From positions 2,225 through 53,253 of the forward strand of contig CAZUFB010000004.1 in NCBI GenBank assembly GCA_964619775.1: DNA of 51,029 bases. The letters run 5' to 3'. The notes beneath the pieces were generated by a model. The model was given only the letters and a program-made list of their open reading frames with translations. It was not told the origin of the DNA and did not search any database. A program made the translations under genes and the position numbers. Shown here piece after piece: positions 3,908 through 50,751 of the stretch (position 1 is the first letter of the stretch; each line of letters starts with the position of its first letter). The DNA is from an uncultured Coriobacteriaceae bacterium. Its GTDB lineage: Bacteria > Actinomycetota > Coriobacteriia > Coriobacteriales > UMGS124.

Positions 3908-4007
3908 TAGTACCGAACGGGCCGGGCGCGCACCGCACCCGGCCCGGCAACAAATAATACCCGCCACCCCCGCGGCGAGGCGCGCGGCTGTATTGCGGAC
4001 TGCCCTA
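3908..4007 (-). repeat. TA-flanked inverted-repeat element, diverged copy (forward orientation on minus strand)
   Basis: On the minus strand it begins TAGGGCAGTCCGCA, 13/14 identical to the 5' end of the 50646 copy. It is ~100 nt long, starts with TA and ends with TA. It contains a 9-bp GC hairpin (3918-3926 / 3938-3946) followed by TTCGG. The interior is poorly alignable to the other copies. Confidence 0.5.
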
Positions 4008-6250: not shown

Positions 6251-6937
6251 ATGAACATACTGGTAGTCGAGGACGAACCGAACCTGGCCGACGCGCTGGC
6301 CCACATCCTGCGGGAGAACCGTTGGAACGTCGACGTCGTCGACAACGGCAAGGACGGTCTCGCCTATGCGGAAAGCGGCATGTACGCCGCCGTCGTGCTC
6401 GACATCATGCTCCCCCAGCTCGACGGCTTCGAGGTGTGCCGGCGGCTGCGCGAGGAAGGCGTCTCCACGCCCGTGCTCATGCTCACCGCGCGCTCCGAGA
6501 CCAAGAGCAAGGTCCAGGGCCTCGACGCCGGGGCCGACGACTACCTCACCAAGCCGTTCGACCCCGAGGAGCTGCTTGCGCGCCTGCGCGCCCTCACCCG
6601 TCGCACCGGCGAGGTGGTGCTCGACACGCTTACCTTCGGCGACCTGACGCTCAACCTGGTCGACATGACCCTCACCTGCTCGGGCGAGCGCAGCGTGCGG
6701 CTCTCGCAGCGCGAAAGCGCGGTGCTCGAGCTGCTCATGCGCGCGCCGCAGACGGTCTTCAGCAAGTCGACCCTGCTCACGCGCGTGTGGGGCACCGGCG
6801 GGGAGGCCGGCCTCAACAACGTCGAGGCGTACATCTCGTTCCTGCGGAAAAAGCTTGCGTTTTTGGAATCGCGTGTCACTATTAGCACCATACGCATGCT
6901 CGGCTACCGCCTCGACGACACCGAGGCGGCATCCTAG
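6251..6937 (+). CDS. OmpR/PhoB-family response regulator
   Basis: MNILVVEDEPNLADAL receiver domain with the DIMLP phospho-Asp context, plus a C-terminal winged helix (..VEAYISFLRKKL..GYRL). Confidence 0.9.
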   Translation: MNILVVEDEPNLADALAHILRENRWNVDVVDNGKDGLAYAESGMYAAVVLDIMLPQLDGFEVCRRLREEGVSTPVLMLTARSETKSKVQGLDAGADDYLTKPFDPEELLARLRALTRRTGEVVLDTLTFGDLTLNLVDMTLTCSGERSVRLSQRESAVLELLMRAPQTVFSKSTLLTRVWGTGGEAGLNNVEAYISFLRKKLAFLESRVTISTIRMLGYRLDDTEAAS

Positions 6938-7038
6938 GGCACCCCGCAAAACGCCGCGCCTCCGTTGGGCCCGGGCCCGCACCCCCCTGTGCGAAGAACC
7001 CCCGCACACCCCGCGCGGCAGCTTCACGGATTGCCCTA
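6935..7038 (-). repeat. TA-flanked inverted-repeat element, copy in reverse orientation
   Basis: The reverse complement begins TAGGGCAATCC, identical over 11 nt to the 8342 copy. It shares ..CAACGGAGGCGCGGCGTTTTGCGG.. and ends GCCCTA. It fills the RR-HK spacer, and its CCTAGG end contains the RR stop codon. Confidence 0.65.
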
Positions 7039-7090: not shown

Positions 7091-8344
7091 GTGCTCAAGA
7101 AGCTCAGGTTCAAGATCGTCGCCATCATCATGGCGATATGCGCGGCCATGCTCGCCTGCGCGTTCGTCGCCATCATGGCCGTCACCTCGTCGAGCGTCCA
7201 GGCCCCTTTGCTACGTGAGCTCAAAAGGGCCGTGGAATGGGGTCCCGAGCAGGAGATAACGGTCGTCATCGGCCGTCACGACGGACCCGACCCGTCCTCG
7301 GAGAGCTCCGACGGATCGGTGCCGGTGGCCGTGGTGGCCGTGGTGGACGGCACCTTGGTCTCCTACAACGACGACTTCCTTACGAGCATGGACGAGACCG
7401 TGCGCACGCTGGCGGTCTCCGAGGCCCTGTCCGCCGAGGCCGACGAGGGCCTGCTGTGGGACATCGGGGTGTTCTTCCTGCGCGACGTGGGGGCCAACAG
7501 CGTGGTGCTCGCGTTCGTAGACGCCAGCGCCTACCTCGCCACGATGCGCAGCACCGCCCTGGGCACCTCCGCCGTGCTGCTGGCCGCCCTGCTGGTGTTG
7601 TTTGTGCTGAGCATCTTCTTGGCCCGCGTCATCACGCGCCCCGTCAAGAAGGCCTGGGACACCCAGGCGCAGTTCATCGCAGACGCCTCCCACGAGCTGA
7701 AAACGCCCCTCACGGTGATCCTCGCCAACATCGACATTCTGCTTCGCAACGAGTCGGGCAGCCTGCGCGAGGAGCAGCGAAAGTGGATCGCGGGCATCGG
7801 CAGCGAGGCGCGGCGCATGAAGGGGCTCGTCGAGGAGATGCTCTTCCTTGCCCGCAACGAGGACGAGGACGCGGCGGCCCACCGCGACGGGGACCCCCCC
7901 GAATGCGACCTGTCGGCCCTCGTGCGCCAGGCCAGCCTCACCTTCGACGCCGTGGCTTTCGAGGCTCAGGTGGAGCTTGTCGACGACATCGAGGACGGGG
8001 TGCGCGTGCGCGGCAACCGCGAGCAGCTCGAACGGCTCGTAAAGTCGCTTATGGACAACGCGGTTAAGTACGCGGGGGCCGGCGGCCGCGTCAAGGTGTC
8101 GCTCGAACGCCGCAAAGGGAACCCCGTGCTGCGCGTGAACAACACCGGCGAGCCGATAGCCCCCGGGGACATCCCGCACGTCTTCGACCGCTTCTGGCGC
8201 AGCGACAAGGCCCGCGGCGGCGGGGCGACGGGGAGCTACGGCCTGGGGCTGGCGATTGCCAAGAGCATCGCCGAGGCGCAGGGCGCCCGCATCTCGGTGA
8301 CGAGCTCGCGCGAGGAGGGGACCACGTTCACGGTGGCGTTCTAG
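7091..8344 (+). CDS. sensor histidine kinase
   Basis: Two TM segments flank a ~130-aa extracytoplasmic region. HisKA box FIADASHELKTPLT, then HATPase N/G boxes (NAVKYA, GYGLGLAIAK). GTG start lies after GGAGG. Confidence 0.9.
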   Translation: MLKKLRFKIVAIIMAICAAMLACAFVAIMAVTSSSVQAPLLRELKRAVEWGPEQEITVVIGRHDGPDPSSESSDGSVPVAVVAVVDGTLVSYNDDFLTSMDETVRTLAVSEALSAEADEGLLWDIGVFFLRDVGANSVVLAFVDASAYLATMRSTALGTSAVLLAALLVLFVLSIFLARVITRPVKKAWDTQAQFIADASHELKTPLTVILANIDILLRNESGSLREEQRKWIAGIGSEARRMKGLVEEMLFLARNEDEDAAAHRDGDPPECDLSALVRQASLTFDAVAFEAQVELVDDIEDGVRVRGNREQLERLVKSLMDNAVKYAGAGGRVKVSLERRKGNPVLRVNNTGEPIAPGDIPHVFDRFWRSDKARGGGATGSYGLGLAIAKSIAEAQGARISVTSSREEGTTFTVAF

Positions 8345-8445
8345 GGCAATCCACGGAATTGCCGAGCGGGGCGCACGAGGGCGATGCGTACACGAGGTGC
8401 GTGAGCCCGAGCGCAACGAAGCTCGGCGTTTCTGCGGATCGCCTC
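8342..8445 (+). repeat. TA-flanked inverted-repeat element, forward copy
   Basis: About 77% identical by hand alignment to 50646-50751. Its first three nt are the HK stop codon. It contains hairpins 8345-8363, 8371-8402 and 8407-8426, the last followed by CGTTTCTG. Confidence 0.8.
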
Positions 8446-8501
8446 GGCGGCTGCCGTCGCAGGATTTGAGGCATGTCCTGCGCACAAAAGTCGCAGCGAC
8501 A

Positions 8502-30478: not shown

Positions 30479-30591
30479 TAGAAAGGTTTTCCGTGGAACA
30501 CTGACCTTCAGGCGGAGGGTAAGGCTCAAGGTCTTCTGCCCGCGTCCCCGCACGGCACGGCCGCACGGAGGCGCGGGCTGCGGAAACGCTA
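30479..30591 (+). repeat. TA-flanked inverted-repeat element, longer diverged copy
   Basis: Begins TAG....TCCGTGGAA (compare TCCACGGAA and TCCGTGAA in other copies). It contains GGAGGG and a 12-nt block ACGGAGGCGCGG identical to the 6935 copy. It ends TGCGGAAACGCTA, and that CTA is the stop of the 30589 gene. Confidence 0.55.
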
Positions 30592-31515
30592 CTCCTGGGG
30601 CGCGACGGGCTGGGCGTTGGGATAGAGGTTGTTGTACTCGGTCAGGTACACGCTCGCGCCGTTCTGGTTGTTGCGCGTCAGGTACGTGCCCACCTCGTCG
30701 GAGCTGGCCCCGTTGACCCACGCCTGCAGCGCGTCGGCCAGATCGGCCGTACGCATCACGAGGTCGTTGTTGAGGGTCTTGAGGTTGGCGAGCGTCTCGG
30801 TGTAGGCAGAGTCCTCGGCAAGCTGGATGGCGTCGAGCGTCGCGGTCTGGGCCGCCAGCTCACTTTGCAGCGCCGTGGCGGTGTCGAGCCACGACTGCAG
30901 CGTCGCACTGTCGACGTCGGTACCAAAGTAGGCCCCGAAGAAGTCAACGATCTCGACGATGCGGTCGTTGAAGCCGGAGAACTGGTCGTAGACAGCCGAA
31001 AGCTGGTCGTACGCCTCCTGCTCGGTGAGGGCGGTCGAAGCGTCTTCGTCGGAGGCCTCACTCACCTCGGCGGCGTCCTCCTCGTCGTCGGAGGTGACCG
31101 GGGTCACGAGCTCGCCGTCGGTATCAACCTGGGAGTCACCGCCGTTGCCGAGGGACGACCACGGCTGGAAGATAAGCAGGACGATGGCCGCGATCACGAC
31201 GACGAGCGCGCAGATGACGACGATGGGCCATTTGGGCGAACCGCCCATCTTGCTCGTGTCGAAGTCTCGCGTGACACCCTGCTGCGGGGGCATCGACGGG
31301 TTCATGGGCACCGCGTGGCCCGAAGGCTGCCGGTAGCCCTGGGTCGGGACGGCCTGGGGCGCCGGGCGCTGCTGGCGGGGCATCTGCTGGGTCGGGACGG
31401 CCTGCTGGGGCGCCGCCTGGCGGGCGCGCTGCTGGGCGCCTTCTACGTCGGTGCCGCAGACAGAGCAGTATTTGGAACCCGAGGGGATCTCGGAGCCGCA
31501 GACGGGACAGTTCAT
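30589..31515 (-). CDS. zinc-ribbon membrane protein (N-terminal CxxC..CxxC, P/Q linker, TM, helical ectodomain)
   Basis: MNCPVCGSEIPSGSKYCSVCGTDV; TM WPIVVICALVVVIAAIVLLIF; a ~190-aa C-terminal domain of unknown function. Confidence 0.7.
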   Translation of the reverse strand: MNCPVCGSEIPSGSKYCSVCGTDVEGAQQRARQAAPQQAVPTQQMPRQQRPAPQAVPTQGYRQPSGHAVPMNPSMPPQQGVTRDFDTSKMGGSPKWPIVVICALVVVIAAIVLLIFQPWSSLGNGGDSQVDTDGELVTPVTSDDEEDAAEVSEASDEDASTALTEQEAYDQLSAVYDQFSGFNDRIVEIVDFFGAYFGTDVDSATLQSWLDTATALQSELAAQTATLDAIQLAEDSAYTETLANLKTLNNDLVMRTADLADALQAWVNGASSDEVGTYLTRNNQNGASVYLTEYNNLYPNAQPVAPQE

Positions 31516-31618
31516 AGGTTGCCTCCTACCTTGTGGTTGCGTTTCGCGTGCGTTGGTCGGTCGGACGCTCCGGGTACCATCATACTATCCGGGAGACGCC
31601 CGAAGGGTCGGCAAAACG

Positions 31619-50645: not shown

Positions 50646-50751
50646 TAGGGCGGTCCGCAGAACTGCCGAGCAGGGCGTGCGAGGGCGCTGCCGTACAAAA
50701 GGCATGCAAGCCCGGAAGCAACGACGCTCGGCGTTTTTGCGGATCGGCCTA
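50646..50751 (+). repeat. TA-flanked inverted-repeat element, forward copy
   Basis: About 77% identical to 8342-8445. TIRs are GGGCGGTCCGCA and TGCGGATCGGCC, flanked by TA on both sides. The 3' CTA is the xseB stop codon on the opposite strand. Confidence 0.8.

Follow-up and report, generated by a model that had tools for sequence, protein, structure and literature searches.

A probable family of miniature inverted-repeat transposable elements at CTAG-like sites and stop codons of an uncultured Coriobacteriaceae bacterium

The 51,029-nt stretch analysed here (the window; 70% G+C) belongs to contig CAZUFB010000004.1 of an uncultured Coriobacteriaceae bacterium (assembly GCA_964619775.1) and carries several copies of a small, TA-flanked inverted repeat, whose reference copy starts at position 8342 behind a histidine-kinase gene. 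This repeat is probably a family of non-autonomous DNA transposons (MITEs, or miniature inverted-repeat transposable elements) of approximately 95–115 bp that is moved by an IS630/Tc1-type transposase. The copies are multiple and precisely inserted, with TA at both junctions, a preference for certain targets and a long hairpin that covaries between copies. The family appears to be an undescribed one of a familiar kind.

The copies in the window were searched for by blastn and nhmmer with a 104-nt query (8342–8445). The query matches the stretch 50646–50746 at 78% of positions across 101 nt (E = 2e-18 by blastn and 1.7e-12 by nhmmer), which bears out the similarity that an initial sequence-only reading of the window had recognised by hand; the termini and the sequences of the first two helices quoted in that reading were also located where it had placed them. 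A third copy on the minus strand (7038–6944) is 72% identical to the query (E = 6e-7). A profile built from the three copies scores its own members at 76–95 bits and matches elsewhere in the window only a 27-nt terminus (4007–3981). The covariance model described below scores the same three copies at 69–105 bits (E = 1e-16 to 1e-26) and has no match in approximately 100 kb of element-free relatives or in the control loci. The 26-nt terminus motif TAGGSCNNYCCRYNNNNNNGCCGNGC, with at most one mismatch, occurs five times in the window compared with 0.05 times expected from shuffles. The window contains three full copies (8342, 50646 and 6935) and one remnant (3908–4007). Of the three further copies that had been proposed, the copy at 6935 is full and lies on the minus strand, the copy at 3908 is represented by one terminus only (3982–4007), and the region at 30479 has no hidden Markov model (HMM) or covariance-model match. 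Two extra copies were found in the 9 kb past the window on the same contig (the L008 extension), the first downstream of terC and the second, which is degenerate, between an HRDC-domain gene and a Zn-peptidase gene. The density is five copies and one remnant per 60 kb of contig, or approximately one per 10–12 kb. The elements are 95–115 nt long with a G+C content of 63–73%, and the open reading frames (ORFs) that overlap them are only the long spurious ones typical of DNA with 70% G+C. A generic repeat search of the whole window missed the family, being swamped by GC-rich coding noise.

Syntenic relatives (loci with L numbers) were fetched via the orthologues of the histidine kinase (HK) and XseA. 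The spacer between the response-regulator (RR) and HK genes, which holds copy 6935, is 153 nt in the window but shorter in three relatives, all of them element-free at this site: 51–52 nt in L016, whose HK is 77% identical, 73 nt in L020 and 36 nt in L017. Deletion of copy 6935 together with one TA from the window yields a gap-free 118-nt alignment with L016, spacer included, which argues for precise, TA-duplicating insertion into C-TA-R sites. Similarly, the xseB-HIT spacer, the site of copy 50646, is 162 nt long in the window. This site is empty in L034 and L036, where the spacers measure 50 and 72 nt, and the sequences align exactly as far as the TA in the TAG stop of xseB. Both ends carry TA in the L037 copies and in four of the five copies on the window's contig. 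At six of seven sites the left flank reads C-TA, and the reconstructed targets are C-TA-R. The HK stop codon is occupied by elements with different arms in the window and in L016, as is the xseB stop codon in the window and in L037, so these sites were hit independently. In L016, two adjacent elements (1736–1902) lie downstream of the orthologous HK stop in the orientation opposite to copy 8342, and their arms are unrelated to those of this copy. The array in L037 (11591–11830) consists of two complete units and a partial one in head-to-tail arrangement, with a single TA dinucleotide at each junction. The HIT-family gene is missing between xseB and ackA in L037, and the element array fills the gap. 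Only three of approximately ten related lineages sampled carry the family; no copies were found in L017, L020, L034/35, L036, L040, L041, L042 or L043. The orientation of the copies is mixed, and some copies are degenerate. The overall behaviour is that of a TA-duplicating cut-and-paste element. The idea of IS630/Tc1-like targeting, already raised from the letters of the window, gains support from the empty orthologous sites, the precise TA duplication and the C-TA-R target.

Six or seven of nine insertion events fall exactly on the TA of the TAG or TAA of an upstream gene. The reference copy starts on the TA of the HK TAG stop (8342–8344); the 3´ TA of copy 50646 lies within the xseB TAG stop (minus strand, 50749–50751); and the regulator TAG stop at copy 6935 (6935–6937) consists of the TA and the first G of the element. 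Compared with random non-coding TA sites of the annotated loci (117 intergenic and 36 at stop codons), this placement has a binomial P of approximately 0.007, and it is unremarkable when compared with CTAG sites. Only 19 CTAG are present in 60.1 kb, whereas approximately 166 are expected from the composition (a depletion of about nine-fold); C-TAG stop codons account for approximately 10 of the 19, and element termini for six or seven. TAG is also the majority stop codon (28 of 45 ORF calls and 28 of 41 tool-called genes, or 62–68%). We infer from this supply of targets, with CTAG depleted and TAG the main stop, why the copies sit mostly on stop codons. In the window subfamily the TA is followed by G whichever way the element is inserted, so that TAG is rebuilt in either orientation. 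The L037 and L016 subfamilies have this G at one end only and were found at stop codons solely in that orientation, a one-way arrangement that would be the expected residue of purifying selection.

These observations suggest the following mechanism. The element would be inserted at the TA within a C-TA-R (CTAG-like) site, with duplication of the TA, by a transposase whose gene lies elsewhere and which most likely belongs to the IS630/Tc1-mariner type. About half of the tolerable targets would be stop codons, because CTAG is depleted and TAG is the commonest stop, and the stop codon would be rebuilt by an element that begins with G (or A) after the TA. Through its complementary arms, the DNA strand or the transcript would then fold into one very stable hairpin, which, after a stop codon or within an operon, is expected to alter mRNA processing or stability by analogy with Correia and ERIC. 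IS630 prefers CTAG targets. The transposase family is inferred from the CTAG-like target, from what is generally known of IS630 and from the precedent of RUP and IS630-Spn1; any effect on expression is likewise a prediction.

Each well-preserved copy folds as a single end-to-end imperfect hairpin, its two arms paired with each other, with free energies of −59 to −64 kcal/mol and z-scores of −3.5 to −6. The TA flanks and a terminal inverted repeat matched at 10 of 12 positions had been described correctly at the outset; the imperfect repeat in fact extends over approximately 26 nt, 21 of which are matched in copy 50646. For the consensus structure, a covariance model was built from seven seeds, and nine distinct copies from the window and other genomes were aligned to it. 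In the long hairpin, standard pairs make up 86% of the alignment cells and both partners have changed in 18 of 30 pairs, values that none of 500 shuffles reached. When the partners are slid by 1–3 columns, pairing falls to 27–51%. Strong covariation is visible only once the copies of other genomes are added, and most of the 'compensatory' changes between the two window copies compared at first are one-sided wobble changes. The three local helices proposed from those two copies fare unequally across the alignment. Helix 1 (67% of cells paired) is an optional local hairpin of the window subfamily only; helix 2 (90%) offers a viable alternative to the central pairings, with which it competes; and helix 3 (CCGAGC-N8-GCTCGG; 45%) is not conserved. 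The single end-to-end hairpin is the dominant structure and a better fit than three local helices, and the fold is preserved by paired substitutions. The arms of an inverted-repeat transposon covary whatever the selective cause; taken alone, their covariation does not demonstrate selection on an RNA fold, which qualifies the early argument that compensatory changes point to selection on the fold (RNA or cruciform DNA).

Helix 3 had also been taken for an intrinsic terminator of the HK gene, and in the reference copy it is indeed followed by CGTTTCTG. This assignment is extremely improbable given how seldom the hairpin pairs across copies. The T-run is 3 nt with no U-tract, other copies are oppositely oriented or sit within operons, and neither a terminator-like site nor a promoter consensus was found in or beside the elements. 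A related alternative is that the repeat is a structured RNA (a stabiliser or processing site in 3´-untranslated or intercistronic regions, or a small RNA) that is kept by selection on RNA, with its spread as a repeat being secondary. The very stable hairpin with significant z-scores, the both-side changes in all helices, the core conserved across genomes (below) and the position of copies directly after stop codons are consistent with this alternative. However, the orthologous sites are empty in close relatives; degenerate, remnant and tandem copies are typical of mobile DNA; the orientation relative to the flanking genes is mixed; and no Rfam family, promoter or terminator signal was matched. 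In addition, the plus orientation (that of the reference copy) is purine-rich in all copies and folds 5–19 kcal/mol better than its complement in seven of nine, and the strand present in mRNA is the weaker-folding one in most copies. Selection on the mRNA fold alone fails to explain this asymmetry because it is mostly the other strand that is in the mRNA. A structured RNA is accordingly quite unlikely as the primary identity of the repeat.

A different division of conserved and variable parts emerged between genomes. In the L016 and L037 elements, nhmmer matched model positions 25–83, a core of approximately 60 nt that contains GCAAGGCG, a CGTAC-loop-GTACG hairpin and AACGCAGC. Core identity is 62–78% between genomes and 66–70% within genomes, whereas arm identity between genomes is 21–31% (the random level), and the arms are nevertheless complementary. 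The core may be bound by a transposase or a host factor, it may be selected at the RNA level, or the arms may have been repeatedly replaced. One possible reading, which we consider unlikely, is a hairpin-dependent mobile module whose core is recognised by an enzyme, possibly on folded single-stranded DNA (ssDNA; compare the ends of IS200/IS605 and attC), and whose arms need only pair. The identity of cores and arms between genomes, the variation of the arms between L037 copies, the purine-rich strand and its better folding all fit such a module. However, a CTAG-like target with TA at both junctions is characteristic of cut-and-paste by IS630/Tc1 and not of IS200/IS605, which makes no duplication, or of attC; the terminal motifs are conserved within the window subfamily; and the sample is small, with a strand asymmetry that may be inherited with the conserved core. 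A broader form of this thought is a mobile structured module rather than an ordinary terminal-repeat transposon, with a core of approximately 60 nt that is recognised or functional and arms that are free provided they pair; either an enzyme would act on the ssDNA fold, or the host would keep the core for 3´-end or intercistronic control at the RNA level. We regard this form, too, as unlikely.

Several points weigh against the MITE interpretation. The arms are 57–72% identical among the copies of one genome, and in L037 they differ from copy to copy with the core conserved. A conserved core with variable arms is unexpected, since terminal-repeat recognition by a transposase would predict the reverse, namely conserved ends around a free centre. 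Most bacterial MITEs are not G+C-rich, whereas the present elements are (PMC2229807). In the 60 kb examined, neither a transposase or autonomous partner with matching ends nor a pair of terminal repeats at the spacing of an insertion sequence (IS) was found. The genomes that supplied the empty sites are approximately 75% identical in protein and are not strains of the same species, so the TA duplication is deduced from comparison between lineages. The covariation counts rest on nine distinct copies in an alignment fitted to the model.

Bacterial MITEs are shorter than 200 bp and have terminal inverted repeats, terminal TA, a target duplication and a long hairpin (PMC2229807). The present element is small (below a size limit of approximately 300 bp) and non-coding, with terminal inverted repeats, multiple copies, and a target duplication accompanied by empty orthologous sites; the TA duplication within an NTAN/CTAG target is that of IS630/Tc1-mariner MITEs. 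The initial description as a multi-copy, non-coding, TA-flanked inverted repeat of MITE- or Correia-like architecture is thus upheld. The resemblance to the Correia element of Neisseria (CREE/NEMIS) extends to a length of approximately 100–155 bp, non-coding sequence, terminal inverted repeats of approximately 26 bp, TA ends generated by duplication, numerous intergenic copies, and a transcript that folds as a long hairpin, which is an RNase III substrate in Neisseria (PMC2229807). In contrast, there is no sequence similarity, as judged by description and not by direct comparison with the Correia consensus. Correia belongs to a proteobacterium and is A+T-rich, whereas the present host is high-GC and actinobacterium-like and its element is 63–73% G+C, with no IHF site or promoter detected. 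The present copies also lie mostly on stop codons (six or seven of nine events), and their core is more conserved than their termini across genomes.

ERIC (IRU, RU-1) of enterobacteria is a 127-bp imperfect palindrome with TA ends that is present in several genera and is co-transcribed with its flanking genes, with orientation-dependent effects on mRNA stability (PMC2229807). The present element differs in phylum and base composition and has no blastn match in 5,426 genomes of Escherichia coli, which carries ERIC. RUP of Streptococcus pneumoniae, a MITE of 107 bp with TA as its insertion site, is believed to be mobilised in trans by a transposase of the IS630 family (PMC2229807); its mechanism with IS630-Spn1 is the mechanism inferred for the present element. 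The terminal repeats of RUP match a known IS, whereas no cognate IS was found for the present element, and RUP is A+T-rich and unrelated in sequence by description, its consensus not having been compared directly. A REP/REPIN-type palindrome spread by a RAYT (IS200/IS605-like tyrosine) transposase would also be multi-copy, extragenic, G+C-rich and often downstream of genes, and REPINs are numerous hairpins of approximately 100 nt. Such an origin is nonetheless very improbable. REPINs have no TA duplication, whereas the present insertions are precise with TA duplicated at both junctions; no conserved GTAG-type REP head is present; a REPIN consists of two conserved REPs around a variable loop, whereas the present element is a single long hairpin with variable arms and a conserved centre; and no RAYT was found among the Pfam-annotated genes of the loci examined. 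The MITE interpretation remains the most probable of these readings.

The early statement that no named family could be matched holds within the resources searched. Rfam gave zero hits at the gathering score in the window and none on the L016 and L037 elements at E up to 10. Blastn found no match in plasmids. The 5´-end motif had four matches in reference genome contigs, all in unrelated taxa and chance by HMM, and a two-part motif had 11 matches in JGI metagenome contigs, which are chance matches only. The patterns used in these genome and metagenome scans predate the recognition of the core, and a pattern based on the core is judged better. Three scans of viral contigs returned 0, 91 and more than 120 stretches, and a nine-copy profile HMM had no match in 1.84 Mb of unrelated viral loci. 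Many IMG/VR loci (L045, L048, L052 and others) fit a loose two-part pattern with an identical 92-nt span, which suggests a conserved phage sequence unrelated to the element. The literature searchable here contains no report of a MITE from Coriobacteriia. Three other candidates were rejected: an integron attC site (no RYYYAAC/GTTRRRY boxes, and the flanks are syntenic housekeeping genes), a self-cleaving ribozyme (no Rfam hit) and insertion by a serine recombinase (a circle of approximately 100 bp is implausible).

Table 1. Copies of the element in the window and the parts of the reference copy (CM, covariance model; MFE, minimum free energy)
Feature	Coordinates	Strand	Description
Reference copy	8342..8446	+	CM 105.2 bits, E 4e-26; MFE structure a single long hairpin, −59.2 kcal/mol, z −5.3
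Reference copy, 5´ arm (terminal inverted repeat)	8342..8367	+	TAGGGCAATCCACGGAATTGCCGAGC; pairs with 8421–8446 in the MFE and consensus structures
Reference copy, central core	8368..8420	+	Homologous to the element cores in L016 and L037
Reference copy, 3´ arm	8421..8446	+	GCTCGGCGTTTCTGCGGATCGCCTCG; partner of the 5´ arm; fuzzy minus-strand match to the terminal repeat
Full copy, TA at both ends	50646..50751	+	CM 94.3 bits; hairpin −63.9 kcal/mol, z −6.1
Full copy, TA at both ends	6935..7038	-	CM 69.3 bits; between the response-regulator and histidine-kinase genes
Probable decayed copy	3908..4007	-	Exact terminus motif at 3982–4007, abutting the trmD TAG stop
Doubtful relative	30479..30592	.	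114-nt TA-bounded region; CTAG at the left end only

At its right end, the reference copy reads GATCGCCTCGG in place of GATCGGCCTA and has no terminal TA; this terminus is decayed. The region 3908–4007 has CTAG at both boundaries (3907 and 4005), and its remainder is unrecognisable, with no covariance-model or HMM match past the terminus and no long hairpin; it probably represents a decayed copy of which one end is still intact. The region 30479–30592 begins on the TAG stop of the minus-strand gene 30589–31584 and has a weak closing stem. Its 18-nt local similarity to copy 6935–7038 (z 4.1) is marginal after multiple testing. It is a doubtful member of the family that may represent a heavily decayed relative or another repeat. 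Contigs of the same species from other samples are 99.4–100% identical to the window, except for one 439-nt contig at 98.9%, and the element is present in every one that spans an insertion site. In the L001 variant, the decayed right end of copy 8342 differs at 8444 and 8446 (T>C and G>A).

The genes that flank the copies are housekeeping genes: glyQS, lepB, trmD, rimM, khpA, rpsP, an OmpR-type RR with its HK, and dinB, with xseA, xseB and the HIT-family gene at the far end. The best named relatives of XseA are from 'MAG: Coriobacteriales bacterium' (57%) and Denitrobacterium (49%), which places the host in a Coriobacteriales-like lineage. Past the element downstream of terC, the convergent terC and diacylglycerol-kinase-like genes are separated by another GC-rich inverted repeat, GGGCCGCGCCCC...GGGGCGCGGCCC (L008 4400–4550), which is distinct from the element and probably a common terminator-type hairpin. 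L037 5007–5302 contains three tandem tRNA genes of 72 nt each, 112 nt apart, all of which score 71.9 bits.

An element that targets CTAG in a genome nearly purged of CTAG and with TAG as its main stop appears to find its landing pads in stop codons, and the ends of the element rebuild the stop. Stable hairpins placed after stops or inside operons, such as RR-HK and xseB-HIT, could shift the relative expression of housekeeping genes. Such hairpins are also a source of broken assemblies and of confusion for gene callers in gut metagenomes. If the pattern of a conserved core with freely covarying arms holds with more copies, the family would provide a test case for separating transposase recognition from structural selection in small mobile repeats.

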